From assembly GCA_963729695.1 (NCBI GenBank), contig CAVSOT010000007.1:425332-489331 (forward strand): a stretch of 64,000 bases of DNA. The letters run 5' to 3'. Numbering within the stretch: position 1 is the stretch's first letter; each line of letters begins with the position of its first letter. The notes under the pieces are model-generated. The model was not told where the DNA came from, ran no database searches, and was given only the letters and a program-made list of their open reading frames with translations. Shown in pieces: positions 1 through 36,452 of this stretch. The translations under genes were made by a program, and so were the position numbers. The DNA is from an uncultured Acidimicrobiaceae bacterium (GTDB taxonomy: Bacteria > Actinomycetota > Acidimicrobiia > Acidimicrobiales > Palsa-688).

Positions 1-851
1 TCCGAGGGGGCGGTATCGAACAGTTGGCCAACAATGTCAATCCGGCCTACAACCGAGAACGGTTCGCGGAGGCCCACGATCTGCTGATCAAGACGTGGAC
101 GGTGCCCGGCCCCTGGCGATGGGAGGGTGAGCACTATCAGGTCCGGGTGGTCAACCCCTGGTCGCTGCCGCTGCAGATGCCACATCCGCGGATTCTCGTC
201 CCGGGCGTTACGAGCCCGGAGTCGATCGTCTTCGCCGCCGAGCACCAATATCCCTACATCTGCCTGAACATGACCCTTCCGGTGACGAAACGGATCTGGG
301 CGACCTACGACGAAGCGGCTGCCCGGGCCGGTTACACGGCTGGACCCGAGCACCGGGGCTACTTGATGCGCTGCCACGTCCAACGAGATGGGGACAAAGC
401 CCGGGCTATTGCGGCAGATTTCACCTGGATGATGGGAGACACCATCGGGTTGGGGAATCCGGCGTGGAATGCTCCCACCGGTTACAGCAGCTTCGATGCC
501 CGCCAGGCTCGAATCAAGGCGTTGAAGGAGTACAGCGTCCCGATAGAGCAGCAGTTCGAGAACCTGACCTTGATCGCGGGCACGCCCAAAGAGGTGATCC
601 AAGGCATCCGGATCTGGCTCGAAGAGACCCGCCCAGGGATGCTGATCTTTATGCCGAACGAGGGTCGAGTCACCCACGACGATGCGATGGAGTGCATCAG
701 ACTCATGGGCGAGGAAGTGCTCCCTGCCGTAAGGGACATGGCCAAAGAGCTCGACCTTCCCGGTCCTTTCGAGGCCGACTCGGGCATCAGCCCCGCGGCC
801 CGGGCCGCAACATGGCCGGAGCCGTCTCCGGTGGCGTCGCCGGTGGCCTGA
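1..851 (+). CDS. LLM-class (luciferase-like) flavin-dependent oxidoreductase, C-terminal fragment (5' end outside window)
   Basis: Frame is open from the window edge to TGA 849-851. The C-terminal half aligns by eye with the complete paralog at 24653..25810 (VNPWSLPLQMPHPRILVPG vs VNPWPRPIQTPHPPIWIPG). Confidence 0.8.
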   Translation, partial: RGGGIEQLANNVNPAYNRERFAEAHDLLIKTWTVPGPWRWEGEHYQVRVVNPWSLPLQMPHPRILVPGVTSPESIVFAAEHQYPYICLNMTLPVTKRIWATYDEAAARAGYTAGPEHRGYLMRCHVQRDGDKARAIAADFTWMMGDTIGLGNPAWNAPTGYSSFDARQARIKALKEYSVPIEQQFENLTLIAGTPKEVIQGIRIWLEETRPGMLIFMPNEGRVTHDDAMECIRLMGEEVLPAVRDMAKELDLPGPFEADSGISPAARAATWPEPSPVASPVA

Positions 852-879: not shown

Positions 880-1818
880 TCAGGACCTCGGCGCGACCAC
901 CCGGGCGAGCCAATCGCTGACCATCCGCTGGCAGCGCTTGGTCACCTCGGCGTTGGGAGCGGCCGATTCGAATCCATGGGGTAAGCCGGGATAGACGTGG
1001 AGCTCGGTAGCCACACCAGCCTGGTAGAGCCTCATGGCGTAGACGACGTCCTCGTCGCAAAATCCGTCCAGGGTCCCGACATAGACCAGGGCGGGTGGCA
1101 GGCCGCAGAGGTCGGGGGATCGGCTGGGTGCTGCCAGATACGGAACATCGACGCCATACAGGTCACCGAGATAGCAACGCCAGCCGAACTCGTTGTCGGC
1201 CGGCGTCCAGGTAGGTACGTGCCACCCGCTCGTCTCGGTTGTCTGGCGGTCGTCGATCATCGGGTAGGCCAGCATCTGGAAGGCGACAGGCAACTCGCCT
1301 CGATCGCGGGCCAGGAGAGCGAGGGCTGCAGCCAGACCCCCGCCGGCGCTGGCCCCTCCGATGCCGATTCTCGTCGGGTCGACACCTAGGTCAGTGGCGT
1401 GCTCGAACACCCACTTCAAGCCGGCGTAACAATCGTCGAGTGGCCCCGGGTATGGGGTTTCGGGGGCCAGCCGGTACTCGACCGACACCCCGACAAGACC
1501 GATATCCGCGCACCAGCGATCAAAACGGGGATCGTCCATCGACCGGTGCCCCAGCACGTACCCGCCGCCGTGAATGTGGTACAGGCACGGAGCCGCCGGC
1601 TGCACATCCGTAGGAACGTGGACTCGAACGGTCACGTCGGGCGCCCCTGGCGCCCCCGGTACCACGTAGTCCTGGCGCGTCACCGCTTCGGTGGAGGCCA
1701 AGGTGTCCATCGCGGCAAGGAACTGGCGGGCTTCGGCGAGGCGATCCAAGCCGAGCGGCGGCGAGGCGCCGCGAGCTCGTAGAGCCGCTTCGATCTCAGG
1801 GTCCAGGGTGACAACCAT
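880..1818 (-). CDS. alpha/beta hydrolase, hormone-sensitive-lipase-type esterase
   Basis: HGGG oxyanion motif (YHIHGGGYVLG) and GxSxG nucleophile elbow (GGASAGG). Start placed at ATG 1818 (MVVTLDPEIE...) because the 54 upstream codons of ORF 880..1980 look non-coding. Confidence 0.85.
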   Translation of the reverse strand: MVVTLDPEIEAALRARGASPPLGLDRLAEARQFLAAMDTLASTEAVTRQDYVVPGAPGAPDVTVRVHVPTDVQPAAPCLYHIHGGGYVLGHRSMDDPRFDRWCADIGLVGVSVEYRLAPETPYPGPLDDCYAGLKWVFEHATDLGVDPTRIGIGGASAGGGLAAALALLARDRGELPVAFQMLAYPMIDDRQTTETSGWHVPTWTPADNEFGWRCYLGDLYGVDVPYLAAPSRSPDLCGLPPALVYVGTLDGFCDEDVVYAMRLYQAGVATELHVYPGLPHGFESAAPNAEVTKRCQRMVSDWLARVVAPRS

Positions 1819-2000: not shown

Positions 2001-3353
2001 GTGACCGCCCCCACTTCGCTGGAGGAAATTGCCGACGGCCTGGTGGCCGTGGTCAGGAGCAGTTGCCCGACGTGCGTGACCGTGGCTCCGGTTCTCGCCG
2101 AGCTGGCGTCGGAAGCCTCGTTGACGGTCATCAGCCAGGACGACCCGGGATTCCCTGACGGGGTCGAGTCGGTGGTCCTCGACCAGGATCTCCACCTGTC
2201 CTGGCTTCTCGGCATCGAGACGGTGCCAACCCTCCTCCGCGTAGCCGACGGGCGCGAGTCGGCCCGAGAGATCGGCTGGCACCGCAGCCGTTGGGAGACC
2301 CTCAGCGGCGTCCGGGAGTTGGGTGAGGGGCTTCCCGAACAGCGGCCGGGATGCGGCTCGCTGTCGGTCGAACCCGGTGTGGCCGAGGCGCTCGACGTCC
2401 GCCACCGACGCCAGATCATGCGCTCCCGTCGAGTCGAGTTCTCCGTGCTGGAGGACGAGTTCGAGGGCATGTGGGCGCGAGGGTGGACCGATGGGTTGCC
2501 GGTGGTGCCGCCAACCGAGGCGCGGGTCTTGGCCATGCTGGACGGCGCCCGGCGCGACCCCGACGAGGTGGTCGGGATCGTGGCGCCGAATCTGGTCCCG
2601 GTGACGGTGGAGAAGGTCGCGGTCAACGCAGTAATGGCCGGATGCCGTCCCGAGTACCTTCCCGTCGTCCTCGCTGCGGTCGAAGCCACCTGCACTGAAG
2701 GGTTCAACATCCACGGGGTGTTGGCCACCACGTTCTCCGTGGGGCCGGTGATCATCGTCAATGGTCCAGTGGCCCGCGCTATCGGTGTGAACAGCGGCGT
2801 CAACGTCCTGGGCCAGGGCAACCGGGCCAACTCGACCATCGGTCGGGCCCTTCAGCTGGTGGTTCGCAACGTCGGGGGCGGCCGTCCCGGCGGCGTCGAC
2901 CGAGCCACCCTCGGCAACCCCGGGAAGGTCGGTTTGTGTTTCTCAGAGGACGAGGAGGGTTCGCCTTGGGAACCGCTCTCGGTAGAGCGGGGAGTGCCCG
3001 ACGGAGTTTCCGCCGTCACCGTGTTCGCTGGAGGGGGGACGCACTCCATCTCCGACCAGACGGCCCGGACACCTGAAGATCTCAGCCGTACCCTGGCGTC
3101 CGGGTTGCGATCGGTGGACACCCTGCTGCTGGTCTCGCCTGATCACGGCCGGACCTTTCGGGACGGTGGCTGGTCGAAGGCCCGGTTGCGCGCCGCACTC
3201 GAACAGCCGAACCAGCGAACCGGGATGCTCGGAAGCCGAGAGTTGCTGATCGTGTATGCGGGTGGGGGCGCCGGGCTCTTCTCCGGCGCCATGGAGGGCT
3301 GGGGTGGTGGCCCCATGGGTAGCATGCACGTGACACGGGAGGTTCGACCATGA
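2001..3353 (+). CDS. fusion protein: N-terminal thioredoxin-fold domain (CPTC) + uncharacterised ~300-aa 'domain X'
   Basis: GTG start preceded by AAGGAAG. SSCPTCVTVAPVL...ETVPTLL is a thioredoxin-like CxxC fold. The C-terminal part (about 2433..3353) has two paralogs in the window (about 30410..31425 and 32109..33189) sharing GLPxxPPT, AGCxPEY, NGP, RANxTxGRA and FCFxED motifs. Confidence 0.85.
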   Translation: MTAPTSLEEIADGLVAVVRSSCPTCVTVAPVLAELASEASLTVISQDDPGFPDGVESVVLDQDLHLSWLLGIETVPTLLRVADGRESAREIGWHRSRWETLSGVRELGEGLPEQRPGCGSLSVEPGVAEALDVRHRRQIMRSRRVEFSVLEDEFEGMWARGWTDGLPVVPPTEARVLAMLDGARRDPDEVVGIVAPNLVPVTVEKVAVNAVMAGCRPEYLPVVLAAVEATCTEGFNIHGVLATTFSVGPVIIVNGPVARAIGVNSGVNVLGQGNRANSTIGRALQLVVRNVGGGRPGGVDRATLGNPGKVGLCFSEDEEGSPWEPLSVERGVPDGVSAVTVFAGGGTHSISDQTARTPEDLSRTLASGLRSVDTLLLVSPDHGRTFRDGGWSKARLRAALEQPNQRTGMLGSRELLIVYAGGGAGLFSGAMEGWGGGPMGSMHVTREVRP

Positions 3354-3395: not shown

Positions 3396-3923
3396 TTGCT
3401 GGACCCGACGGCTGAGCTCGCCCCCGCGAGCAGGGCGCTCGTCTCCCGCCCTGCTGGCCTCGACGGGTTGACCATCGGTCTGCTCGACATCTCCAAGCCC
3501 AGAGGTGACGTGTTCCTCGACCAGCTCGCGCAGCGACTGCACGGGCGGGGATGGAGCGTCCTGCGCTATGCAAAACCAACCTTCACCAAGCCGGCGCCCA
3601 TCGATCTTCGCCAGGAGATCGCCGTCCAGTGCGACGTGGTGATCGAGGCCCTCGCCGATTGAGGCAGCTGTACGTCGTGCAGTGTGCACGACATCGCCGA
3701 CCTGGACTCGCGAGGCGTGCCAGGCGTGTTTGTGGCGTCCCGCGAGTTCATCCCTGCCGCCGCGGCCCAGTCCGAAGGTCTCGGTTTTCCCGCCGCCGCG
3801 GTCTTTGTCGACCACCCGATACAGGATCGCACCGACGAGGAGGTCAGAGCCCTGGCTGACGGCGCCCTGCCTGCGCTTCTCGCCGCGCTCACCAACCCTG
3901 CGCCCACCCGCAGCGCGGACTGA
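3396..3923 (+). CDS. UGSC-motif selenoprotein (TGA 3660-3662 read as selenocysteine); function unknown
   Basis: ORF-track fragments 3396..3662 and 3684..3923 share one frame and are split only by TGA. Read-through gives ...VVIEALAD-U-GSCTSCSVHDIADL.... A paralog with the same TGA context lies at 31761, a hairpin lies 11 nt downstream, and the sel genes are in the window. The start is uncertain (TTG 3396, or ancestral ATG 3350 in another frame). Confidence 0.8.
3674..3692 (+). promoter_or_regulatory. SECIS-like RNA hairpin downstream of Sec codon
   Basis: Perfect inverted repeat GTCGTGCA-GTG-TGCACGAC starting 11 nt after TGA 3660-3662. The apical region contains GU. Confidence 0.55.
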
Positions 3924-4004: not shown

Positions 4005-4838
4005 GTGCACTGGGGGATCGGCTCCGTTCGGGTGACCAAGGTGGTCGAGTACGAGACGTCCGGCCCGTTCCCGAGACTGCTGCTTGGAGCCCCAACCGAC
4101 CTCGCCGAGAAGCACAGGTGGCTCTCCCCGCATTTCGTGACCGACGACGGCGAGGCCCGAACGTCGATTCACGGCCTGGTTGTCGATACCGGGGCCCACC
4201 GGATTCTCGTCGACACCTGTATCGGGAGCATGCGGGAGATGTCGAGCGTGCCCCTCTCACCCAGCGGGTTCCTGGACGCCCTGAACGCAGCCGGCTACGG
4301 CGTGGACGATATCGACACCGTCTTGTGCACCCATCTCCATTTCGATCACGTCGGTTGGAACACCCGCTTGGTGGACGGTCAGTGGCAGGTCACCTTTCCA
4401 AAGGCCCGTTATCTGTTCAGCCGGTCGGAATGGGAGCATTGGCAGACGGCGACCAGCGGGCTGGTGGACATCGCCCACACCGTGGAGCCCGTGGTGGCGG
4501 CCGGCCAAGCCGAGATGGTCGAAGTCGACTGCGTGGTCTGCGACGAGGTTCGGCTTGAGCCGACACCCGGCCATACGCCCGGCCACGTCAGCGTGGTGAT
4601 CGAGAGCGCCGGCGAGCGGGCCGTGATCACGGGCGATCTGGCCCACCATCCGGTCCAGTTCGCCGAGCCACAGCTCGGCAGCCCCGCGGACTCCGATCGG
4701 GCCGAGGCGGTGGAGACGCGCCGTCGCTTCCGGGAGGAGCGTGGCGCCGACGGCGCCTTGGTCATCGGCACCCACTTTGGCGGACCTACTGCCGGGCGGA
4801 TCGTCTGTGAGGGAACGTCATGGCGCTTCGCTGTCTAG
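4005..4838 (+). CDS. MBL-fold metallo-hydrolase (lactonase-like)
   Basis: HxHxDH motif (CTHLHFDHVGW) and a later HTPGH. The GTG start is uncertain by a few codons. Confidence 0.8.
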   Translation: MHWGIGSVRVTKVVEYETSGPFPRLLLGAPTDLAEKHRWLSPHFVTDDGEARTSIHGLVVDTGAHRILVDTCIGSMREMSSVPLSPSGFLDALNAAGYGVDDIDTVLCTHLHFDHVGWNTRLVDGQWQVTFPKARYLFSRSEWEHWQTATSGLVDIAHTVEPVVAAGQAEMVEVDCVVCDEVRLEPTPGHTPGHVSVVIESAGERAVITGDLAHHPVQFAEPQLGSPADSDRAEAVETRRRFREERGADGALVIGTHFGGPTAGRIVCEGTSWRFAV

Positions 4839-4889: not shown

Positions 4890-5861
4890 TCAGGATTGAC
4901 TCGGAGCGGGAAGGCGCAAGCGTGGCCATACCTCTCGCACCGCCAGCTCGATGACGTCCAGGCTGTCCTCGAAGACCGCAGGCGAGATGATAAAGGTGCG
5001 GGCGCCGGCATCGACAAACGCCTGGAGCCGAGCGGCGACCTCAGCGGGCGTCCCAGCCGGCGCAACCCGCTCGGCCTTGGCCACCTTGTCGGGAGTCCGG
5101 TAGGCGTACCCGAAGAAGCGGCCGATCTCGTCTCGCGCCTGGTCCCCATCCTTGCGGATGGCGCACTTCACGGTCAGCATCCACTCGAATCCGTCGAGGT
5201 CTCGGCCCCGACGCGTCGCCTCCTCGCGGACGACCCGCACGGACTCCGCGTACGCCCGGGGTGACACGAGGTACGGCATCCAGCCGTCGCCGGCCCGGGC
5301 GGCGCGGCGCATCGCCGCCGGCTTACGACCCGATATGACCACAGGCAACTGGCGCGGGCGGGTCGCCGTCTCGTCTGCCCCGAGGGGCTGGACCCGGTGC
5401 AACTGGACGTCGTCGAGGTGGAAGTAGCGCCCGTGGTGGGTCACCGGCTCACCGGTCCACAGCGCCCGCATGACTTCGAGGGCTTCGTCGGTTCGCTGGC
5501 CTCGCTCTGTGATCGGGCTCCCGACCGCTTCGAACTCTTCGGGAAATTCGCCGCCGACACCGATGCCGACCGCAAGCCGGCCGCCCGAGTGGGCGTCGAG
5601 GTCGGCCAACTGCTTGGCCACCAGCACGGGATGATAAAGAGGTAGGACGAGCACCGCCGTGCCGATGCGTACCCGTTCGGTCCATGCCGCGAGCAGGGCG
5701 ACGCGTGTGATCGTCTCGCCCCGCGGGCCCCGAGGAAGGATGTGACCGCCGTGCCAGATGGACTCGATGGGCAGGCGTTCCGCCGCGGCCAACCAGGCTC
5801 GATCCGGCTCGGGGATTGCCGCGGCCCCGAACACGATGCGGTCGGCTATCGCCGCTGGCAT
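4890..5861 (-). CDS. LLM-class (probably F420-dependent) oxidoreductase
   Basis: Luciferase-like TIM-barrel signature stretches (RVRIGTAVLVLPLYHPVLVAKQLADLD, GRLAVGIGVGG). Start trimmed to ATG 5861 (MPAAIADRIVFG...), since the upstream 79 codons of the ORF are Arg/Pro-rich and non-coding-like. Confidence 0.8.
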   Translation of the reverse strand: MPAAIADRIVFGAAAIPEPDRAWLAAAERLPIESIWHGGHILPRGPRGETITRVALLAAWTERVRIGTAVLVLPLYHPVLVAKQLADLDAHSGGRLAVGIGVGGEFPEEFEAVGSPITERGQRTDEALEVMRALWTGEPVTHHGRYFHLDDVQLHRVQPLGADETATRPRQLPVVISGRKPAAMRRAARAGDGWMPYLVSPRAYAESVRVVREEATRRGRDLDGFEWMLTVKCAIRKDGDQARDEIGRFFGYAYRTPDKVAKAERVAPAGTPAEVAARLQAFVDAGARTFIISPAVFEDSLDVIELAVREVWPRLRLPAPSQS

Positions 5862-5955
5862 GGATCGTCCCTGATGGCCGAGCACGCTACTGCAAGCCCG
5901 AAGGGGTCCCACCGTCCGGGCGGAGGGAGTGGCGGGTGGGCCGCTGCTCGTGATG

Positions 5956-6000
5956 TTCGGGGTGCGCCGGCGTTTTCGGGGTGCGCCGGCGTTTTTCGGA
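5956..6000. repeat. ~19-nt direct repeat, about 2.3 copies (TTCGGGGTGCGCCGGCGTT), each containing the palindrome CGCCGGCG
   Basis: Read directly. Lies in the divergent intergenic region between the LLM gene (start 5861, minus) and the CoxL-like gene (start 6146, plus). Confidence 0.6.
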
Positions 6001-6145
6001 CGCGCCTGGCGACAAATGGACATCTGTGCAGCCTCAGGCTGTACAGACGTCCAAAGAATGAGACCTCGCCGCTGGAGGACCACCGGCTCGGCCGCCACCT
6101 ACCCGGCGGTCCCCAACAGTGGTTCCCCAACAACGGGGCCATAGG

Positions 6146-8422
6146 ATGCCCCCCATGGCACTGTTGGGTACGCCGCTGACCCGTCGCGAAGACGAGCGGC
6201 TTCTCACCGGCCGCGCCCAGTACGTCTCGAATCTCGATATCCCAGGCGCCGCGTTTGCCGTGTATGTGACCTCGACCGTGGCCCACGGTCGCATCCTCTC
6301 CGTCGACCTCAGCGACGCGCGTACCGCTCCGGGAGTGCTCGGGGCGTACAGCGCCCACGACGTCGATTTCGGCCCGTATCCGCTGGGAGATCCCACCGCG
6401 CCCGTGGCCATCGTCCGTCCGCTTCTGGCGGGCGACACCGTCCATTTTGTGGGCGAACCGATCGCGGTTGTCGTCAGCGAGACACGCGAGGCAGGCGTCG
6501 ACGCAGCCGGACTCGTCGTGGTCGACATCGATCCGCTCCCGGCTCTCCCGAGCCTCGAGCGGGCCCTTCAAGGCGACGTACTGCTGTACCCCGAGGCCGG
6601 TTCGAATGTGGTGAAGCGCGAAGAGGGAGGCGATCCAGAGGCGGAGGCCCTGCTCGACGCCTGCGAGGTGGTCGTCCGGGCCACCATCCGGAGCCCACGC
6701 GTCGCGCCCTGCCCCCTCGAGACGAGAGCGGGGGCGTCCCGATGGGAGGAAGACGGCCGGCTGACGCATTGGTCGGCGTGCCAGGGTCCCCACCCCATCC
6801 GAACCCTGCTGGCATCGCTCTACGACCTGCCGGCTGACCGGATTCGGGTCATCGCCCCCGACGTCGGTGGCAGTTTCGGCGCCAAGGCGCGTGCGTACCC
6901 GGAGGAGACGTTGCTGCCATGGCTGGCGGAGCGGGTGGGTCGGCCGGTGCGCTGGGTGCCCACCCGGTCCGACGACATGGTTGGCCTGGGGCACTCCCGC
7001 TGCCAGCAACAGCACGTGGCCCTGGGCGGCAGCCGGGACGGGACCCTGGAAGTGCTGAGCGTCAAGGTCGTCGCCGACGCAGGCGCGTATCCGATGTCCG
7101 CCGCGCTCTTGGCGCGCAATACGGGTTTGCTGTCGCCCGAGATCTACCGCATTGGCAAGGTCCACTGGGAGACCGAGGTGGTGGTTACTTCGACCACTCC
7201 GGTGACGGCCTATAGAGGTGCCGGCCGCCCCGAGGCGGCGGCGGTCACGGAGCGGGCGGTCGAGCTGTTCGCCCGGGAGATCGGAATGGATCCCGTCGAA
7301 CTTCGTCGGCGCAACCTTCTTCGTTCGTCGCAGTTTCCCTATACGACGCCGACCGGCCTCGTCTACGACAGCGGCGATTACGAAGTGTTGCTGGACCGGG
7401 TCCTCGACGCGGCCGGATATCAGCAGCTACGCAACGAACAGTCCTGCCGTCGGGCCGAACAAACCCCCGTTCAGCTCGGCATCGGTGTGGCGATGTTCCT
7501 CGACCGCACCGCCGGGTTCCCCGGCAGCGAGTACGCGCGCACGCAGCTTCGATCAGACGGTTCGGTTCTCCTGACCACCAGCTCGACGCCGCACGGTCAA
7601 GGTCATCACACGGTGTGGGCGATGCTCGTGGCCGATCGCACCGGCCTTCCCCTTGAGAAGGTCGAGGTTGTCCATGGCGACACGGACCTGATGCCCTACG
7701 GCAGCACGACGGGGGGCTCGGTATCGGCGCAACGGGCCGGGTCGGCCGTGGCGCTGGCGGCCGAGCAGCTGGTGGAGCTGGGCCGCAATGCCGCTGCTGA
7801 TCTCTTGGAGGCCGCCGTCGAGGACATCGTCCTCGACGCGGGGGGCCCGGCCTGCTTCCACGTGGCCGGGTCGCCGTCGACCGCCTTGAGTTGGGAGGAC
7901 ATCGCCGTCGCTGCGGCTTCCGCCTCGGACTCGGGCCTGGCCTGCGAGTCGGACTGCAGCAGTGCCGCCACCTTCCCGGCCGGCGCGTACGTCGCCGTGG
8001 TCGAGGTCGACACCGAGACGGGTGCCGTCAGCGTGCGACGGCTGGTTACCGTGGACGACGCGGGGACCGTCCTGAACCCGTTGCTGGCCGAAGGGCAGGT
8101 GCACGGCGGTTCGGCTCAAGGGATAGCCCAAGCGTTGCTCGAGGAATTCGTATACGACGACGCGGGTAATCCGCTCACATCCAACTTTGCCGACTACGCA
8201 GTGATCTCCGCCCCCGAGCTCCCGTCCTTCGAATCGTTCATGGTGGAGACTCCCTCGCCCAACAATCCGCTCGGCGCCAAGGGCATTGGCGAGTCGGGTT
8301 CGATCGGGGCTCCTCCCGCTGTGCAAAATGCGGTCATCGACGCCCTCCTGCCCTTCGGTGTCACCCACGTCGACATGCCGTGCACACCCCAGCGGGTCTG
8401 GCAGGCCATGCGGGGGATATGA
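6146..8422 (+). CDS. xanthine dehydrogenase family molybdopterin-binding subunit, form-II CoxL-like
   Basis: N-terminal LGTPLTRREDERLLTGRAQYV and the AYRGAGR motif (VTAYRGAGRPEA) typical of form-II CODH-like large subunits. ATG 6146 or 6155 is more plausible than GTG 6119. Confidence 0.85.
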   Translation: MPPMALLGTPLTRREDERLLTGRAQYVSNLDIPGAAFAVYVTSTVAHGRILSVDLSDARTAPGVLGAYSAHDVDFGPYPLGDPTAPVAIVRPLLAGDTVHFVGEPIAVVVSETREAGVDAAGLVVVDIDPLPALPSLERALQGDVLLYPEAGSNVVKREEGGDPEAEALLDACEVVVRATIRSPRVAPCPLETRAGASRWEEDGRLTHWSACQGPHPIRTLLASLYDLPADRIRVIAPDVGGSFGAKARAYPEETLLPWLAERVGRPVRWVPTRSDDMVGLGHSRCQQQHVALGGSRDGTLEVLSVKVVADAGAYPMSAALLARNTGLLSPEIYRIGKVHWETEVVVTSTTPVTAYRGAGRPEAAAVTERAVELFAREIGMDPVELRRRNLLRSSQFPYTTPTGLVYDSGDYEVLLDRVLDAAGYQQLRNEQSCRRAEQTPVQLGIGVAMFLDRTAGFPGSEYARTQLRSDGSVLLTTSSTPHGQGHHTVWAMLVADRTGLPLEKVEVVHGDTDLMPYGSTTGGSVSAQRAGSAVALAAEQLVELGRNAAADLLEAAVEDIVLDAGGPACFHVAGSPSTALSWEDIAVAAASASDSGLACESDCSSAATFPAGAYVAVVEVDTETGAVSVRRLVTVDDAGTVLNPLLAEGQVHGGSAQGIAQALLEEFVYDDAGNPLTSNFADYAVISAPELPSFESFMVETPSPNNPLGAKGIGESGSIGAPPAVQNAVIDALLPFGVTHVDMPCTPQRVWQAMRGI

Positions 8423-27155: not shown

Positions 27156-28397
27156 GTGATGACACAGTCCAGGTTTGTACGCCTCATAGAGCGGTTCGAT
27201 CCGTTCGATCCCGAGTTCGTACAGCACTTCAACCAGGTTTGCGGAGACCTCAGGGAGCAATGCCCGGTTGCCCACAGTTCGGCGCACGGAGGGTTTTGGA
27301 CCTTCAGCCGGTTCGACGAGGTGCTGCACGGCTTTGCCGACAACGATGGCCTGTCGGCGGTTCCCACGGCGACGATTCCCCCCAATCCCAACGCGGTGCA
27401 CCTCCTGCCCCTTCAGGCGGACCCGGCCGAACACGGCGACCTCCGTCGATTCCTCAACCCGTACTTTCGGGCGGGGGCGGTTGGCAAATTCGAAGCGGGC
27501 ATCCGATCCGAGGTCACCGCGCTCATCGACGATTTCATCGAAGCCGGGCGCTGCGAGTTCATCGCCCAATTCGGTCGGCGCCTACCCGGCGCCGTCATCT
27601 TCCGCCAGCTGCTCGGGCTTCCCGAAAGCGAAGTGGACGAGGCCTACCACTGGGTGATGGCCATCATGCACGGCCACAACACCGACGAGTTCGGTCATAT
27701 CTTCGACAGTTTCTCGACTCTGGCCGCAGGCATGCTCGAACGCCGGCGGAACGAGGACCGCCGCGACGACGCCGTCGATGCCCTCCTGCACGGAACGATA
27801 GGGGACCGGCTCCTCACCGACGACGAGATCATCCGGACGCTCATGCTCCTCATCGCGGGTGGGCTGGACACGACCGCGCATGCCCTCGGCAACTTTGTCA
27901 TCAGGTTGGCGCACGACCCGGAGCTGCGGGGGCGCCTCGAAGCCGAGCCGCAGCGCATACCGGGAGCCATCGAGGAGCTGCTGCGCATCGACCCGCCGGC
28001 CGGTGGGCTCGTGCGCACGGCGGTGCGCGACCTGGTGATCGACGGCGCGGAAGTACGGGAGGGCGACCGGATCCTGCTCCTGGTCGCGGCGGCGAATCGA
28101 GACCCCCGCGAGTTCGAGGCGCCCGAGCGCATCGATCTCGACCGCACCCGCAATCGGCATCTGTCTTGGGGATACGGCACCCACTTCTGTCTCGGCGTGC
28201 ACCTGGCCCGCCTGGAACTACGGGTGGCGTTCGAGGAGATCCTCGACCGGCTCCACGACATTCAGGTGCTCGACCATCCCGTCCCCTACGACACGGGCTG
28301 TTCTAGGGGCCCCGTCGCCCTGCGCATCGGCTTCACGCCGGGACTGCGACGTGAGCCCCAGAGGTCAGCTGCGCACGCGTCCCCGAACGATGGCTGA
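27156..28397 (+). CDS. cytochrome P450
   Basis: Heme loop WGYGTHFCLGVHLARLE and EELLR. Confidence 0.9.
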   Translation: MMTQSRFVRLIERFDPFDPEFVQHFNQVCGDLREQCPVAHSSAHGGFWTFSRFDEVLHGFADNDGLSAVPTATIPPNPNAVHLLPLQADPAEHGDLRRFLNPYFRAGAVGKFEAGIRSEVTALIDDFIEAGRCEFIAQFGRRLPGAVIFRQLLGLPESEVDEAYHWVMAIMHGHNTDEFGHIFDSFSTLAAGMLERRRNEDRRDDAVDALLHGTIGDRLLTDDEIIRTLMLLIAGGLDTTAHALGNFVIRLAHDPELRGRLEAEPQRIPGAIEELLRIDPPAGGLVRTAVRDLVIDGAEVREGDRILLLVAAANRDPREFEAPERIDLDRTRNRHLSWGYGTHFCLGVHLARLELRVAFEEILDRLHDIQVLDHPVPYDTGCSRGPVALRIGFTPGLRREPQRSAAHASPNDG

Positions 28398-29286
28398 ATC
28401 CGCGCTTGGTATGGTGCTCGACTGGTTCGGCTGCGCGACCTTCCGGCTGCGGGCGCAGGGCGTGACGATCTTTCTGGACGCCTACATCGATCGGGTCGCG
28501 GGGGCTCCGGGCCCCGCCCTCACTGCCGATGACGTCGACGAGTGCGATTGGATGGTGATCGGCCACTCGCACTTCGATCACCTTTACGGTGCGGATCGCA
28601 TTGCCAGCTCGACCGGGTGTCGGATCATCGGCAGCTACGAGACGATCCGTGTCCTCGAATCGTGCGGGGTTCCGATCGACCAGATGATCTGCGTCTCCGG
28701 TGGGGAGCGCATCGAGCTGGCCGATGGGCTCCGGGTTTCGGTGTACCCGAGCCAGCATTCCTGCGTGTGGACCCACCGCCAGATGCCGCGGGTCGACGAG
28801 GTGTGCATCGGCGACCTCGGCGTCACGTGGCAGGAGCAGGCGGCGCGACTCGCCGACCTGGGCGCCTACTACGCCGGGCTCGGGGGCGCCCTGTTCGACC
28901 ATCTTCGGTCGACGCATCAAGGCGCAAGGGGCGACGGTGGCTCGTTGGTGTATCTCTTCGAGACGCCCGAGGGTTCGCTTCTCTACCAGGACACTTCGGG
29001 ATGCTGGACGGGGGTGCTCCGTGACCTCCGACCGGATGTCGCCATTCTGGCCGCGGCTGGTCGGGGCAACCTCGATGGGGATCCCATCCAGGGGAGCCTG
29101 GCCCAGTTCGTCGCTCGGGAGGTGGCTCTGCTGAGGCCCCGACAGGTCGTGCTCAGTCACCATGATGACTGGCTCCCCGGGTTTTCCGTCGAGACTGACG
29201 TCGGGCCTATCCGATCTGAGCTTTCCCGCCTGGCCCCGAGCGCCGAGCTGCGGGAAATCGGGTATCTCGATGGGACGGTGCTGTAG
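28390..29286 (+). CDS. MBL-fold metallo-hydrolase
   Basis: HxHxDH (VIGHSHFDHLYG). ATG 28390 (MAESALGMVLDWFG...) overlaps the P450 stop by 8 nt. Confidence 0.75.
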   Translation: MAESALGMVLDWFGCATFRLRAQGVTIFLDAYIDRVAGAPGPALTADDVDECDWMVIGHSHFDHLYGADRIASSTGCRIIGSYETIRVLESCGVPIDQMICVSGGERIELADGLRVSVYPSQHSCVWTHRQMPRVDEVCIGDLGVTWQEQAARLADLGAYYAGLGGALFDHLRSTHQGARGDGGSLVYLFETPEGSLLYQDTSGCWTGVLRDLRPDVAILAAAGRGNLDGDPIQGSLAQFVAREVALLRPRQVVLSHHDDWLPGFSVETDVGPIRSELSRLAPSAELREIGYLDGTVL

Positions 29287-29298
29287 CCGGCCCGGTCG

Positions 29299-31425
29299 GT
29301 GCACTCATCGTGGTTGACACCCGGCGGACCGTGTGAGACGGTGATGTTTGCTTTGAGCCGAGCAGGTAGTTCGTTGAGGACAACCGCTGTCGTCGGAGCC
29401 GGGGCCAGCGGCCTGTCGGCCGCCTGGCACGTGGCCCGTCGGGGTCATCACGTCATCCTGATCGACCATCAGGGGGCCGGGGGACAACTGTTGAACGTTG
29501 GCGTCATCGAGTCCGTTCCTGGTCTCGGGTCGTCGGTACGGGGGCCCGACCTGGTCGCTCGAATGGTGCAGCAGATGGATGAGCAGAAGATCGAGTGGCT
29601 GCACGAGCGGGCTGTCAACATCGGGCACCGGTCGAACCGGTTCCGGATCCTCACCGACGCGGGTTCCGAGGTCGTGGCCGACGCCGTCATCGTGGCAACC
29701 GGATCTTGGCACCGCCAACTCGGTGTTCCCGGCGAGGACGCCCTCGAGCACCGGGGCGTGTCCCACTGCGCCGTCTGTGACGGCCCGCTCTACCGGGATC
29801 GACCAGTAGCAGTGGTGGGTGGCGGCGACGCGGCCGCCGACGCCGCCGCCTACCTGGCCGGCATCTGCTCGCGGGTTCACCTCGTGCACCGAGCGGGTCG
29901 ACTCGAAGCGGTTGATGCCTTGTGTCGCCGGCTCTATGGGCTCCCCAACGTGGAGCATTGGCCCGACACGGAGGTGCGTCGCATCGGTGGGGACACAGCG
30001 GTCGAGGCGGTGGAGATCGAAGACGGCGCCGGGGGGAGGCGGAGCATCGAAGTAGCCGCTGTCTTCGTCGCCGTCGGGATGGATCCCGACGCCTCCTTGG
30101 TCGCCGGCCTCGCCCAGCTCGACCCCTCAGGATGCGTGGCGGTCGATGCCGGCCTGATGACAAACGTCCCGGGCCTGTTCGCCGTGGGAGCGGTCCGGGC
30201 GGGGACCTCCGGCCAGCTGGCGGGCTCCATCGGCGACGGTGTCGCCGCCGCCGCGGCCGCGGATGGGTGGCTTCGGTCCCAGCGCCCGCCGGCCGGTAGT
30301 CCAGGGTTGGCTCGTAGTCCAGGGTCGGCTCGTAGTCCAGGGTCGGCCCTTCGTCCGGGATGGGCCGGTGGTCCCGGATGGCCCGGCAACGCCACTCGCA
30401 CCCGTCGTCTCGACGATGGCTCGGACTACGTCGACTACGGCGACTTCTTCGACTCGATGGGCGAAGTCGGGGTCGGCGATGGATTGCCTCTTGTGCCGCC
30501 TACACCGGCGCGTTTCGACCGCTTCGCCACCGCGTTGGCGTGCGATCCCTACGAACTGCTGCCGGCTCTTCCGGACGGCCGCCGGCTGCGCTACGCCGAC
30601 CTCGTCATGTCCGCCATCCTGGCCGGCTGCCGCCCGGAGTACATGCCGGTGGTCGCGGCCGCAGCCGAGTCGCTGTTGACGGATCTCGCCGGCCGGCAAC
30701 CGCGACTGCCCGACTCCGTTGCGGTCGTCCTCGTCAACGGTCCCGTCCGGGAGACGATCGGCCTCAATTGCTCGGACGGCCTCTTCGGGCCGGGGTGGCG
30801 AGCCAATGCCACCATCGGGCGGGCCGTTCAGCTGTTCCTCCGTGGGCAGGTCGACGATCGCCGGCCGACCGGGTTCGGCGACGCCGGACAGATCGCGTTC
30901 TGCTTCGGAGAAGATGAACAAACGTCGCCCTGGACGCCACTGCACGTCCAGCGGGGATTAGATCCAGGCCAGAGCACGGCCACCGTTTTCGTGGCCAACG
31001 CCTACCGGCACATGCTGGACCGTCAGAACACTGATGCGGACGGGATCATCGAGTACCTGCGGCTGTTCCTTCGCGGCCGGGCCTCAGGAACCCGACTGTT
31101 CGGCGACGTCCCGCTAACCCTGATGGTCGTCATCGGTCGGGAGCTGCGGCGCCAGTTGGCCCCGCGCTATTCGAAGGCGGAGCTATCCGAACGGCTGTTC
31201 GACCTTCTGACCCTGGACGACGGGACGCCCTTTGGGCCAATCGACGTGCCCGATGCCGACCACGTTCTGATCGTCGGGGCGGGAGGCGTCGCCACCCCCG
31301 CACTATGGTGCTTTGTCGCGGCGGCGTCGCCGCCCGTTACCGTGCCGGTCCGCGATCCGGGACTCGCCTTCGGATCTGGGCCGCCGCCACGAGCTCGAGA
31401 GATGAGCCAAGGAGAAGCGAGATGA
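29299..31425 (+). CDS. fusion protein: thioredoxin-reductase-like flavoprotein (CAVC) + Pro/Gly-rich repeat linker + domain X
   Basis: VVGAGASGLSAAWHVARRG (FAD GxGxxG), GVSHCAVCDGPLY (TrxB-type redox disulfide), VVGGGDAAADAA (NADPH site) and GLFAVGAV. The C-terminal DGLPLVPPTPAR...LAGCRPEYMPVV...VNGPV...WRANATIGRA...FCFGEDEQ is domain X. Start may be ATG 29344. Confidence 0.85.
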   Translation: MHSSWLTPGGPCETVMFALSRAGSSLRTTAVVGAGASGLSAAWHVARRGHHVILIDHQGAGGQLLNVGVIESVPGLGSSVRGPDLVARMVQQMDEQKIEWLHERAVNIGHRSNRFRILTDAGSEVVADAVIVATGSWHRQLGVPGEDALEHRGVSHCAVCDGPLYRDRPVAVVGGGDAAADAAAYLAGICSRVHLVHRAGRLEAVDALCRRLYGLPNVEHWPDTEVRRIGGDTAVEAVEIEDGAGGRRSIEVAAVFVAVGMDPDASLVAGLAQLDPSGCVAVDAGLMTNVPGLFAVGAVRAGTSGQLAGSIGDGVAAAAAADGWLRSQRPPAGSPGLARSPGSARSPGSALRPGWAGGPGWPGNATRTRRLDDGSDYVDYGDFFDSMGEVGVGDGLPLVPPTPARFDRFATALACDPYELLPALPDGRRLRYADLVMSAILAGCRPEYMPVVAAAAESLLTDLAGRQPRLPDSVAVVLVNGPVRETIGLNCSDGLFGPGWRANATIGRAVQLFLRGQVDDRRPTGFGDAGQIAFCFGEDEQTSPWTPLHVQRGLDPGQSTATVFVANAYRHMLDRQNTDADGIIEYLRLFLRGRASGTRLFGDVPLTLMVVIGRELRRQLAPRYSKAELSERLFDLLTLDDGTPFGPIDVPDADHVLIVGAGGVATPALWCFVAAASPPVTVPVRDPGLAFGSGPPPRAREMSQGEAR
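30296..30385 (+). repeat. in-frame 18-nt (6-aa) tandem repeat, 5 diverging copies, forming the inter-domain linker
   Basis: GTAGTCCAGGGTTGGCTC / GTAGTCCAGGGTCGGCTC / GTAGTCCAGGGTCGGCCC / TTCGTCCGGGATGGGCCG / GTGGTCCCGGATGGCCCG, encoding GSPGLARSPGSARSPGSALRPGWAGGPGWPG. Confidence 0.7.
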
Positions 31426-32112
31426 ACCCTCTGGTGCGTCCGGTGAACGTTCGAAACGAGGTCGGAGTGGTGTGCGACCCGCTCGCTCCCTTGCCGGCCG
31501 GCGATGGCCGCGCCGAGCGGACCGTTGCCTCCCGGCCCTCGTCGCTCGACGGCAAGGTGCTCGCCGTGATCGACAACGGGATGGGCCAGCAAGCTCCAGG
31601 ACTGGGTTTCGGAGAGGTCTTGGTCCGGAAGCTGAAGGAGGTGGCCGACATTGCCGATGTCATCTACGTTCGCAAGGACGCGGTCAACGTCCCCCCTCGC
31701 CCAGAGGACTGGATGGAGATATGCCGTCGTGGCGACGTCGGTCTGGCCCTCTACGGCGCTTGAGGGAGTTGCAGCTCGCGCAGTTTCGCGCGACGCCATA
31801 GAGCTCGAGTGGGCTGGCATACCGGCAGTAGCGGTGGTGCACGAGGCGCTGGCCGGCTCGGCCGACGCCATGAGGTTGATGTCGGGGATCCCGCACTATC
31901 CGTTTCTCGAGGTCAACTTCCCGTTACCCCCGGTCGGCCCGTGGACCGTCGAGCAGGTTGAGGCTGTGTGCGACGAGCTGCTCCCCGGAGTGATCGAACA
32001 ATTGACCCACGACATCGCCGGGCCCGCGGCGCGTGACCAGCAGTCCGCCCCTGCGCTGGTCCCTGCCGGTGATGCCGTCGCAGAGGATCGGCCGAGGGCC
32101 CCGGCGCCGTGA
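31422..32112 (+). pseudogene. UGSC-motif (seleno)protein paralog; needs TGA 31761 recoding and a +1 frame correction near 31779 (pseudogene or assembly indel)
   Basis: ATG 31422 overlaps the upstream stop (ATGA). Frame 0 gives ...DVGLALYGA-TGA-GSCSS. The homologous continuation AVSRDAIELEWAGIPAVAVVHEAL...PFLEVNFP is in the +1 frame through TGA 32110-32112. The span is 3n+1 nt. Confidence 0.6.
31776..31793 (+). promoter_or_regulatory. SECIS-like hairpin downstream of second in-frame TGA
   Basis: TCGCGC-AGTTTC-GCGCGA, starting 12 nt after TGA 31761-31763. The loop contains GU. Confidence 0.4.
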
Positions 32113-33189
32113 CAGCCGGCGGTCAGACCCGGACGTTCGCCGATTATGACGATTTCTTCGATGACTTTGTCGAGCGCGGCGCTACGGATGGGCTTCCCAT
32201 CATCCCCCCGACCCCAGCCCGAGTGGACGCTGCTCTGGCCGCGGCCGGGCTGGATGGACGCGAAGTGTTGGGGGAGATTCCCACCCGGGATGTCGTGGTG
32301 GACGCCCGGCGGGTCGCGATCAACGCAGTCATGGCGGGGTGCTTGCCCGAGTACATGCCTGTCGTGGCGGCCGCGGTGCGAGCGTGGACGCATCCGCTGG
32401 CCAATGGGCACGGCGTCACCGGGAGCCTCGCCGGGCCGACCAATCCCATCATCATCAATGGTCCCATCGCGACGGAGCTCGGGTTCAACGGTGGGGCGGG
32501 GTGCTTCGGGCCGGGCTGGCGAGCCAATGCCACGGTGGGACGAGCACTTCGTCTGATCGTCAGGAACGTCGCTCTGTCGATACCCGGCTTCGCCGATCGC
32601 GCCGCCTACTCCCAGCCTGGGCGCTTCACGTTCTGCTTCTGCGAAGACCAACAATCGACCGTCTGGAACCCACTCCACGTCGAGCGCGGCTACCGCCCCG
32701 AGGACAGCGTGGCAAGCGTGCATTCGAACACGGACATCTTCACCTATCGCAGCGAGGAGCCCGACCCGGAGGGCCTCCTCGACGGCCTCGTGACCCTCGC
32801 TCGGGCTCGTCCGGTCCAGAAGGAGGACTTCGTGGGCCAGTGGCGCAGCGTGGTCATCGGTAATTGGACCGGATCACCGCGACGTCCTGGAGCGCAACGG
32901 ATGGTCGAAGGCAGCTGTCCGCGAGTATTTGCATCCTCGGTTGACGATGCCGGACACGTTCGAGCCGGGCGCTCGGACCGTCTGGGGTAGCCAACCGACG
33001 GGAAGCCTGGGTGAGTACTCGTTCTATATCCCGAACGCCGACAACGTCCTCCTCGTTGCCGCCGGGGGGAGGTCGGCCTTCCAATCTGTCGTTTTGTACC
33101 CCCACGTGTCCAGCACCGTCTCCGCCGAGGTCACCTTCGACGGTTCGCGCGGCCGGTTGGTCCCCGACGACAGCATCGTGTGCGGTTGA
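32109..33189 (+). pseudogene. stand-alone domain-X paralog with +1 frame discontinuity at about 32862 (pseudogene or assembly indel)
   Basis: GTG 32109 overlaps the upstream stop (GTGA). Frame 0 carries DGLPIIPPTPAR...MAGCLPEYMPVV...INGPI...WRANATVGRA...FCFCEDQQ...WRSVVIG. The homologous C-terminus (IGPDHRDVLERNGWSKAAV...LLVAAGG) continues in the +1 frame to 33189. The span is 3n+1 nt. Confidence 0.6.
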
Positions 33190-33865: not shown

Positions 33866-34870
33866 TCAGTCGAGCGCGACCATGGGCGGTCCGGGCCCGA
33901 CCTCTCCAATCTCCCACCACCCGTTTCCGGCCAGGACCCCAGCGTCGTCGGGATGGACCGAGACGAGGAGTCCTCCCGAGGTTTGGGGGTCGATGGCCAG
34001 AGCCTCCAGGCTGGGTTCGGCCGCCGACGACAGATGGCCCTGCAAGTAGGCCCGGTTTCGGGCATCACCGCCCGTGCGCACCCCGGCCGTGGCGGCGCGC
34101 TTGGCCCCCGGATACAGAGGGAGGGCGGCCGAGTCGAACCGGATCGAGGCGCCTGACCTCTCGGCAATTTCCCAACCGTGACCAACCAGGCCGAACCCGG
34201 TCACGTCGGTGACTGCGTGCGCCGCCGGCCCGTAGTCTCGATCAGGAAGCTGCGCCAGTTGCTGCGCCGCCTTCCTGTTGAGCACTCGCATCTGCCCGAT
34301 CGTGGCCGTTTTCGAGCCTTCGTCGGTGCTGGCCAGCACGATGCCGGAGCCCAGCGGTTTGGAGAGGAGCAAGCGATCCCCCGCCAGGGCGCCGCCTTTG
34401 GTCCAGATCCGCTCGGGATCCACCAGCCCTTGGACAGCGAGGCCGAAGATCGGTTCGGCCGACCGGATCGTGTGGCCGCCGGCAATCGTCCCCCCGGCTT
34501 CGGCGACCACGGCGGCGGCCGCCTCCAGGATGGCTGCGATCGCATCTGGGGGGAATTCCTCGGGAAAGGCGGCAATGTTGAGAGCGGTGATCACCCGTCC
34601 TCCCATGGCGAATACGTCGCTGCAAGCGTTCGCGGCTGCGATGGCCCCGAAGTCGGCCGGATCGTCCACCAGGGGTGGGAAGAAGTCGGTGGTGGACACG
34701 ACCGCCAGTTCGGGCGATAGCCGGTACACAGCGGCGTCGTCGAAGGGGGCCAGACCGACGAGGAGATCAGCGTCCTCGGTCCCGGCGACCAGGTCCACCA
34801 GCCCGCTCAACGCGGCGCCGCCCCATTTGGCCGCGCACCCTCCACAGGATGTCCATTCGGTCAGTTTCAC
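33866..34870 (-). CDS. selD: selenide, water dikinase (selenophosphate synthetase), Cys-type
   Basis: LTEWTSCGGCAAKWGG N-terminal active-site loop followed by the AIR-synthase-like fold (DDAAVYRL..., DFFPPLVDDP, TDVTGFGLVGH). GTG 34870 overlaps the selA stop (GTGA). The longer ORF-track N-terminus overlaps selA and looks non-coding. Confidence 0.9.
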   Translation of the reverse strand: MKLTEWTSCGGCAAKWGGAALSGLVDLVAGTEDADLLVGLAPFDDAAVYRLSPELAVVSTTDFFPPLVDDPADFGAIAAANACSDVFAMGGRVITALNIAAFPEEFPPDAIAAILEAAAAVVAEAGGTIAGGHTIRSAEPIFGLAVQGLVDPERIWTKGGALAGDRLLLSKPLGSGIVLASTDEGSKTATIGQMRVLNRKAAQQLAQLPDRDYGPAAHAVTDVTGFGLVGHGWEIAERSGASIRFDSAALPLYPGAKRAATAGVRTGGDARNRAYLQGHLSSAAEPSLEALAIDPQTSGGLLVSVHPDDAGVLAGNGWWEIGEVGPGPPMVALD

Positions 34871-36180: not shown

Positions 36181-36258
36181 GCCCGTAGGCTAGCCCTGAT
36201 GAGCATCGCCGACAGAGCCTGCATCCGCGTCGTAGTGGGGCGGGGCGGGCTGCTCCGG

Positions 36259-36351
36259 CGGAGGTGGACGGGAATCGAACCCGCCGCTGTGGGTGCGCCA
36301 CAGCCAACCGCTTTGAAGGCGGCGGAGTCCACCAGGTACTCGGACACCTCC
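36259..36351 (-). tRNA. selC: tRNA-Sec (anticodon UCA)
   Basis: The reverse complement reads GGAGGTGTCCGAGTACCTGGTGGACTCCGCCGCCTTCAAAGCGGTTGGCTGTGGCGCACCCACAGCGGCGGGTTCGATTCCCGTCCACCTCCG. It has a 7-bp acceptor (GGAGGTG/CACCTCC), anticodon loop CTTCAAA, a long variable arm (GCTGTGG-CGCAC-CCACAGC) and a 6-bp T-stem with loop TTCGATT, giving 13 stacked acceptor+T base pairs as in tRNA-Sec. It lies between selA and selB. Confidence 0.85.
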
Positions 36352-36452
36352 GCGTGGGAGTGTAACGACGGTCAAAAGCGGCCGGCAAGCCGGCGCAGGG
36401 GCCGTCAGCTCGACCATCAGGCGCGCCACGCGACCATCGCGGTCGAGGTCCT

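Follow-up and report, generated by a model that had tools for sequence, protein, structure and literature searches.

This report concerns a protein domain of about 300 amino acids (aa), here called domain X, which is encoded in three regions of a 64,000-nucleotide (nt) stretch of DNA from an uncultured Acidimicrobiaceae bacterium (contig CAVSOT010000007.1; the whole stretch is called the window below). In the interpretation that we favour, with somewhat more confidence than doubt, X is the conserved partner subunit of the selenoprotein UGSC, and both form a two-component, selenocysteine (Sec)-dependent reductase that takes up reducing equivalents through dithiol/disulfide exchange. The best reading of its electron supply is that the X and UGSC reductase is recharged by thioredoxin (Trx). 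X is probably the second subunit of a selenium-dependent reductase of many environmental bacteria, because it is nearly always beside or fused to UGSC and thioredoxin-type modules; a redox role of X likewise fits with its fusions to Trx, thioredoxin reductase (TrxR), the catalytic chain of ferredoxin:thioredoxin reductase (FTR) and UGSC, as well as with the UGSC gene that nearly always adjoins it. We classify X/UGSC as a Grd/Prd-type Sec-dependent, thioredoxin-coupled reductase with a partner subunit of no detectable relatives. The genes and motifs of the window that bear on this are listed below.

2001..3353, + strand: gene 1, an open reading frame (ORF) of 450 aa, thioredoxin-like module followed by domain X copy 1
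2001..2432, + strand: N-terminal Trx-fold module of gene 1 (Foldseek; weak TIGR01068 and TraF matches)
2064..2075, + strand: CPTC motif of the gene 1 Trx module
2346..2360, + strand: linker motif PGCGS of gene 1, between the Trx module and X
2433..3353, + strand: domain X copy 1, the C-terminal two-thirds of gene 1
2643..2645, + strand: codon of the AGC cysteine of copy 1, Cys215 (gene-1 numbering)
2937..2939, + strand: codon of the CFSED cysteine of copy 1, Cys313 (gene-1 numbering)
3396..3923, + strand: UGSC-family selenoprotein gene 1 (UGSC-1), directly after gene 1, with an in-frame TGA
3660..3662, + strand: Sec TGA of UGSC-1, motif ALAD-U-G-S-C-T-S-C
29299..31425, + strand: gene 2, 708 aa, TrxR-like flavoprotein, linker and domain X copy 2 (ORF, profile scans)
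29767..29778, + strand: CAVC motif of gene 2, aa 157-160
about 30412..31422, + strand: domain X copy 2, the C-terminal half of gene 2
31422..32112, + strand: UGSC-family gene 2 (UGSC-2), type B (U-G-S-C-S-S-R), its halves matching PF24696 in different frames
31761..31763, + strand: Sec TGA of UGSC-2
32109..33189, + strand: domain X copy 3, a stand-alone gene with a GTG start that overlaps the UGSC-2 stop

The initial annotation of this DNA had claimed that the three regions are paralogs with common motifs, and we agree. Pairwise BLASTP gave 40% identity for copies 1 and 2 (E=2e-41), 46% for copies 1 and 3 (E=2e-49) and 39% for copies 2 and 3 (E=6e-42); values of this size exclude chance and therefore establish paralogy. 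All of the sequence blocks that had been described, including a late AGG block, were found in every copy. The start positions of the main blocks, all on the + strand, are given here for copies 1, 2 and 3 in that order.

DGLP block: 2490, 30478, 32187
AGC block: 2637, 30622, 32334
NGP block: 2760, 30736, 32457
RAN(A/S)T block: 2823, 30799, 32520
CFxED block: 2937, 30901, 32634

The start proposed for copy 2, 30410, was two bases off frame and has been corrected to 30412, where the codon begins. The features that identify domain X are the fusions inside the same genes and the selenoprotein genes immediately downstream, on both of which the initial annotation was silent.

In gene 1 the partner of X is a module with a Trx fold and a CxxC motif, which Foldseek matched to ResA, TrxA and CcmG with a probability of 1.0. 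It covers residues 1 to ~110 only, and the database name of the gene-1 orthologues, thioredoxin family protein, is justified by this stretch; the name fits the N-terminal quarter of gene 1 only, whereas X, modelled separately, has no Trx-like match. A relative of equal length (P0001) is 96% identical to gene 1. The PGCGS linker lies in a high-confidence part of the AlphaFold2 (AF2) model and is absent from the TrxR fusion; its cysteine, Cys118, may serve as an extra relay cysteine. The N-terminal part of gene 2 is TrxR-like according to its profile matches (aa 29-324; PF07992, E=7e-40; TIGR01292, E=1e-78, with 264 bits under a cut-off of 343 bits), and it is joined to X by a Pro/Gly-rich short repeat, SPGLARSPGSARSPGSALRPGWAGGPGWPG (30290..30400), with a weak match to DUF1388. 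The exact gene 2 of the window is not on record in public assemblies; the same TrxR-X architecture occurs in two further sequences (L007 and P0220). Reductases that are fused to their own thioredoxin module are known, for example MsrA/B-Trx. The fusions of X resemble these in that a terminal reductase is joined to the module that recycles its own oxidised cysteine, and differ from them in having an unrelated fold and in the participation of a separate selenoprotein subunit.

The genes that follow copies 1 and 2 are members of the UGSC family by sequence. With the U replaced by C, UGSC-1 scored 145.5 bits against PF24696 (cut-off 25) and 151.1 bits against NF041046 (cut-off 125). The ATG of UGSC-2 overlaps the stop of gene 2, and UGSC-2 directly precedes copy 3. 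This pairing extends far beyond the window. Among the 80 best genome loci, the X gene is in each case a Trx(CxTC)-PGCG(S/A)-X fusion in architecture, and the CxTC and PGCG(S/A) motifs themselves are kept in 78 of these 80 orthologous loci. A UGSC gene lies directly downstream on the same strand in 76 of them and divergently upstream in one more, while another locus ends at the X gene. Pairing of X with UGSC was also seen in L001, L003-L007 and L009, of which L005 and L006 carry stand-alone X, and the entire second operon (TrxR-X, UGSC, X) recurs intact in L007.

The codon at the Sec position was TGA in all 73 of the partner UGSC genes with a readable motif, which reads U-G-S-C-x-(S/T)-C. Two Blastococcus UGSC genes (L035, 7282..7284; L029, about 1371..1373) have TAG rather than TGA at the Sec site, within GAT TAG GGC TC. 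TGC. UAG-decoded selenocysteine was reportedly found in Geodermatophilaceae by Mukai et al. in 2016, and the two TAG codons fit with this.

The architectures of X were surveyed in 150 representative clusters and fall into the groups below.

X alone or N-terminally truncated: 88 of 150 clusters
UGSC-X or X-UGSC fusion, in both orders: 24 of 150 clusters
Trx/TlpA/AhpC-like module and X: 22 of 150 clusters
other N-terminal extensions: 8 of 150 clusters, including one FTR-beta-X fusion (P0173)
tandem X-X: 7 of 150 clusters
TrxR-X: 1 of 150 clusters (P0220); P0200, counted under other extensions, is also TrxR-X

According to this census, X has been joined independently to UGSC and to several unrelated disulfide-reducing modules. 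In P0173 the catalytic beta chain of FTR (CPC...CPC...CHC; PF02943, E=2e-21) is fused to X, which implies ferredoxin-driven reduction in some lineages. Gene callers had cut several UGSC-X fusions in two at precisely the Sec TGA. L010, when read through this codon, has the order signal peptide-UGSC(U)-X, and some of the fusions are Cys forms (CGSC). The tandem X-X proteins are ~710-740 aa long (L091, 266..2491; L092, 6001..8154) and often lack the second cysteine. The genes in L091 and L092 adjoin genes for family-5 solute-binding proteins, and tandem X-X may be a UGSC-independent branch that acts on an imported solute.

Domain X is a large family, with thousands of sequence clusters. All 8,000 of the 8,000 candidates from a word-indexed search matched at E<=1e-3. 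When 1.84 billion cluster representatives were searched exhaustively with a profile, 5,775 clusters matched at E<=1e-3 and 1,703 at E<=1e-30, counted at 50% identity. In a scan of one genome per species X was found in at least 600 matching stretches, from Acidimicrobiia, other Actinomycetota, Myxococcota, Alpha- and Betaproteobacteria, Chloroflexota, Acidobacteriota and others. The few matches with names are called 'thioredoxin family protein' or 'hypothetical protein', come mostly from Acidimicrobiales and have no Pfam domain over X. The family deserves a Pfam or NCBIfam model of its own.

Conservation was measured over 154 instances of X from the 150 best representatives (clusters at 50% identity). 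The initial annotation had called two cysteines invariant, and both are indeed present in the three window copies. In the wider alignment the AGC cysteine (Cys215) is kept in 151 of 154 instances (98%) and in all 80 of the Trx-X orthologues, and it is probably essential; the CFxED cysteine (Cys313) is kept in 135 of 154 (88%) and is therefore not invariant. Cys313 is often absent or shifted in tandem X-X proteins and is lost in some fusions. The idea that UGSC-X fusions do without the second cysteine was rejected, as 22 of 24 fusions keep Cys313. A replacement of Cys by Sec inside X was also discarded: P0232, which begins just past the AGC motif, is cut by a contig end, and none of the 80 loci has a TGA in the X region. 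Seven columns are identical in 154 of 154 instances (Ala213, Gly214, Gly255, Asn277, Arg282, Glu316 and one further Ala), and Asp164, Arg275, Glu318 and Trp323 are near-invariant (gene-1 numbering). With its invariant Arg, Asn, Asp, Glu and Trp residues, X may bind a small polar or zwitterionic ligand.

X had been left without a named family, and our searches bear this out. Neither single scans of Pfam and NCBIfam at E<=10 nor scans with 50 diverse members gave a match, apart from scattered one-off chance matches, and profiles of X (A1 and A3) found nothing meaningful in the PDB by sequence. The AF2 model of full-length gene 1 had a predicted local distance difference test score (pLDDT) of 85.8 and a predicted template-modelling score (pTM) of 0.84, and that of X alone a pLDDT of 83.6 and a pTM of 0.88. 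In Foldseek searches of the PDB the full-length model found thioredoxins only, through its N-terminal module, and the model of X alone had no match at E<=1e-3. Class I (Fe-S) fumarate hydratase, the Toblerone-fold cyclic amide hydrolases and YjgF were considered and rejected as the fold of X (best E 5.6e-3, probability about 0.5); the best matches had template-modelling (TM) scores of 0.2-0.32 and root-mean-square deviations (rmsd) of 11-17 Å. An identity with class I fumarate hydratase was also dismissed as its three cluster-binding cysteines are not conserved in the 154-instance alignment. Read for secondary structure only, the AF2 model puts Cys215 at the N-terminus of a helix, in the short turn that separates it from another helix, and Cys313 in a beta-strand directly ahead of the acidic EDE loop.

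The comparison with known systems comes from the selenoprotein. When 18 diverse UGSC proteins were scanned one by one, 13 matched the glycine reductase selenoprotein B (GrdB) model TIGR01917 (best E 2e-5), 12 the sarcosine reductase GrdF model (best E 1e-5), 6 the glycine/betaine/sarcosine/D-proline selenoprotein B model TIGR01918 (best E 1.6e-4) and 3 the betaine reductase GrdH model. In the window, residues 75-143 of UGSC-1 align to positions 333-396 of the GrdB-type model, Sec included, with 12 bits against a TIGR01917 cut-off of 602. All 73 type-A partners and UGSC-1 of the window (at 3660) carry UxxCxxC, with cysteines at +3 and +6 after Sec, which is a published signature of GrdB/F/H (PMC6778437); the type-B partner (UGSCSSR) keeps UxxC only. 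By sequence, UGSC is thus a remote, miniature relative of the Sec region of GrdB, GrdF and PrdB, itself a recognised GrdB homologue (PMC13188914). It is not a member of the GrdB family, because its scores are far under the curated cut-offs, and it is much shorter (~175 aa, compared with ~430 aa for GrdB). The UGSC profile had no match among solved structures.

With PrdA/PrdB, GrdE/GrdB, GrdG/GrdF and GrdI/GrdH the X/UGSC system has in common the pairing of a larger partner with a small subunit that carries Sec in U-x-x-C(-x-x-C), in addition to the remote homology of UGSC to the Sec region of GrdB/GrdF/PrdB. The proposed supply of reducing power through thioredoxin would be a further likeness to glycine reductase, which receives its electrons from thioredoxin. 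The substrate of proline reductase is bound by the larger subunit and attacked by the Sec of PrdB, after which the oxidised enzyme is re-reduced (PMC11229817). The larger partners of the Grd/Prd systems, the pyruvoyl proproteins GrdE and PrdA, are likewise encoded next to a GrdB/PrdB-type selenoprotein, as X is next to UGSC in 76 of 80 loci, although the homology of the selenoproteins is remote only. X itself had no match to the GrdE/PrdA pyruvoyl proprotein models (PF09338 Gly_reductase, NCBIfam) at E<=10, the 50 members included, and so the Grd/Prd analogy rests on the partner and not on X. The systems also differ in that no GrdA, GrdC/D, PrdC or PrdH-type gene is among the recurrent neighbours of X, in that the partner subunit of the X system carries fused Trx or TrxR modules, and in that the hosts of X look like aerobic environmental bacteria rather than amino-acid-fermenting anaerobes. 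We take the hosts to be mostly aerobes from the organism names and the usual biology of those groups.

Given the Grd/Prd analogy and the pattern of fusions, we propose a division of labour between X, UGSC and Trx. X, in a physical complex with UGSC, would supply the substrate pocket, made up of Asp164, Arg275, Asn277, Arg282, Glu316, Glu318 and Trp323 together with Cys215, and UGSC, like GrdB and PrdB, would supply the Sec nucleophile in UxxCxxC. The favoured reaction, by analogy with D-proline reductase, would be the reductive cleavage of a bond in a small amino-acid-like solute. Turnover would leave a selenenyl-sulfide or disulfide bond between or within X and UGSC that involves Cys215, with Cys313, the extra cysteines of UGSC and Cys118 of the linker as candidate resolving or relay thiols. 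Electrons would then flow towards this bond. In the gene 1 system the fused Trx module (CPTC) could re-reduce it, perhaps via the PGCGS linker cysteine, and in the second operon the TrxR-like module fused to X in gene 2 could do so directly from NAD(P)H. Copies 2 and 3 probably form a heterodimer, for which the tandem X-X proteins found elsewhere are a hint. A more far-reaching version of this proposal, which we regard as tentative and rather less probable than not, is that X has a fold not represented in the PDB and serves as the catalytic subunit that binds the substrate, in a new class of thioredoxin-driven Sec reductase that carries out a Stickland-type cleavage of a common small solute outside the anaerobic fermenters.

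Several observations weigh against the view of X and UGSC as a Grd/Prd-like reductase. The UGSC-GrdB matches lie far under the curated cut-offs and speak for remote homology only, and X has no detectable similarity to GrdE, PrdA or any other family in the Pfam/NCBIfam scans. No PDB neighbour of X in Foldseek anchors an active site, and the proximity of Cys215 to Sec is hypothetical. The pairing is also incomplete: two of the 80 Trx-X loci and both inspected tandem X-X loci have no UGSC gene in the examined DNA. Cys215 is replaced by Ala in 3 of the 154 instances. Finally, neighbour clustering of the 80 loci revealed no conserved third gene around X/UGSC that hints at a substrate; the recurrent neighbours (flavin-reductase-like in 20, MutY-like in 18, selA-like in 9 and selB-like in 9 of 80 loci) reflect lineage-level synteny only.

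A different role for the pair, as a general antioxidant or repair system (a peroxidase, or a reductase of sulfoxides or protein disulfides) rather than a metabolic reductase, is unlikely in our view. Systems of that kind typically show fusions to AhpC/TSA-like and Trx modules, and the hosts appear mostly to be aerobes, again judged by their names and the usual biology of the groups. The UGSC family is very abundant in oxic waters, and most Trx-coupled selenoproteins in aquatic metagenomes are Prx/Trx/Msr-like (PMC2398784). UGSC, however, resembles GrdB/PrdB and not the Prx, Msr or Trx folds, X is large with an invariant constellation of charged and polar residues that suggests a specific small ligand, and the tandem X-X genes adjoin solute-binding-protein genes. 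An even closer parallel to the Grd/Prd systems, in which X is a proprotein of the GrdE/PrdA type, is quite unlikely. Here cleavage between Gly214 and Cys215 would create an N-terminal pyruvoyl group that forms a Schiff base with an amine, to be attacked by the Sec of UGSC. Nearly all X domains carry the Ala-Gly-Cys motif, a small residue ahead of the cleaved residue is typical of pyruvoyl enzymes, and the UGSC partner is GrdB/PrdB-like. The pyruvoyl group of PrdA and GrdE does come from an internal Cys (PMC11229817). X, on the other hand, does not resemble the GrdE or PrdA models in sequence, the 80 loci show no recurrent PrdH-like maturation gene near it, and a redox-active cysteine explains the fusions to Trx, TrxR and FTR more simply. 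Known pyruvoyl sites use a strand-loop, whereas the AF2 model has Cys215 in a helix-helix turn.

The initial annotation had considered a redox, metal or cofactor site. The redox part of this fits with the fusions and the UGSC neighbours, but there is no sign of a metal and no conserved His/Cys cluster in X. Stand-alone copies of X do carry extra, partly conserved cysteines (NCHS, GCFGPG, NVCRA), and the weak best Foldseek matches include the class I, Fe-S-dependent fumarate hydratases. These matches are not significant (E>=5.6e-3, TM<=0.32, rmsd 11-17 Å), the extra cysteines are missing from copies 1 and 2, no His is conserved, and, because a single cysteine is near-universal, we consider it very improbable that the cysteines bind a metal or an Fe-S cluster. 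The presence of selD, selA and selB next to X genes in the window and in L001 would agree with a part in selenium handling, in which X delivers selenide, or reduces selenite or selenosulfide to feed SelD, and is not itself a Sec-dependent enzyme. This is hardly probable at all, because only about 9 of the 80 loci, about a tenth, have sel genes near X; Cys-form (CGSC) fusions exist, and selenoprotein genes are often found among sel genes for unrelated reasons.

The metagenome surveys had already made UGSC known as a very abundant selenoprotein. A Trx-like fold was proposed for it in 2008 (PMC2398784), and it was still among the selenoproteins of unknown function in a 2026 review (PMC13188914). 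Zhang & Gladyshev described UGSC fused to a conserved unknown domain, 'Unknown_1', with a conserved Cys (PMC2398784). This fits with the UGSC-X fusions found here, and Unknown_1 is probably X; the X motifs had no match in the supplementary sequences of that paper. The near-obligate pairing, the Trx/TrxR/FTR fusions and the GrdB link are what our results add to the 2008 paper, and we found no description of the X family, the UGSC pairing, these fusions or the UGSC-GrdB relation in the literature. UGSC comes with a fixed partner of ~300 aa, for which fusions to thioredoxin, thioredoxin reductase, FTR and UGSC itself have arisen repeatedly. This turns an orphan selenoprotein into a defined two- or three-component enzyme system that is open to reconstitution and substrate screening, and brings to light a large family, of thousands of sequence clusters, with members now called 'thioredoxin family protein' or 'hypothetical protein'. 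If the Prd/Grd-like chemistry is true, the reductive selenoenzyme chemistry of anaerobic fermenters would extend to many aerobic environmental bacteria.

The second operon of the window carries two 1-nt insertions, at 31785..31792 and 32855..32865, each a G or C in a GC-rich run. The first, near 31788, breaks UGSC-2, the intact orthologue of which in L007 reads UGSCSSRSLRDAVEMEWAGIP. The second affects copy 3: the region 32109..33189 does encode domain X, as the initial annotation had it, but it is not one ORF and needs a change of frame, with frame 0 covering 32109..32990 and the C-terminal part in the +1 frame (32929..33189). Compared with an intact 359-aa relative that is 96% identical (P0271/L008), copy 3 has one extra G at about 32859-32860; P0121 is a second intact relative of 359 aa. 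The close relatives L007 and L008/P0271 lack these insertions, and gene 1 and UGSC-1 of the window are intact. The insertions are either recent pseudogenisation or assembly errors.

Metallo-beta-lactamase-fold genes lie just past UGSC-1 (4005..4838, + strand) and just ahead of gene 2 (28351..29286, + strand); the top neighbour clusters that recur in the 80 related loci include no such gene. By translation alone, the genes at 24..851, 4890..6098, 6119..8422 and 27156..28397 look like those of luciferase-like monooxygenases, the large subunit of a molybdopterin hydroxylase and a cytochrome P450; they have the look of ordinary oxidoreductase metabolism, with no link to X/UGSC seen.

The genes for Sec insertion (33866..38183) come right after the second X/UGSC operon, and a possible signal for it lies within UGSC-1.

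3674..3692, + strand: hairpin, a possible bacterial selenocysteine insertion sequence (SECIS) element, starting 14 nt past the UGSC-1 TGA
33866..34900, - strand: selD (selenophosphate synthetase), AIRS and AIRS_C domains
34867..36180, - strand: selA-like gene (L-seryl-tRNA(Sec) selenium transferase), from the ORF sequence without a family scan
36257..36351, - strand: tRNA-Sec, anticodon tca, which reads UGA (ARAGORN; Rfam RF01852, 64.2 bits)
36453..38183, + strand: selB (Sec-specific elongation factor), GTP_EFTU, SelB-wing_3 and Beta-barrel_SelB domains

The stem of the UGSC-1 hairpin is present, with a z-score against shuffled sequences that is not significant in this GC-rich sequence. SelD of the window has Cys and not Sec in its N-terminal SCGGCAAK motif. 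We take the ORF at 34867..36180 to be selA-like from its sequence and the general features of SelA, and in the related locus L001 a SelA gene (PF03841) was found in a like neighbourhood.

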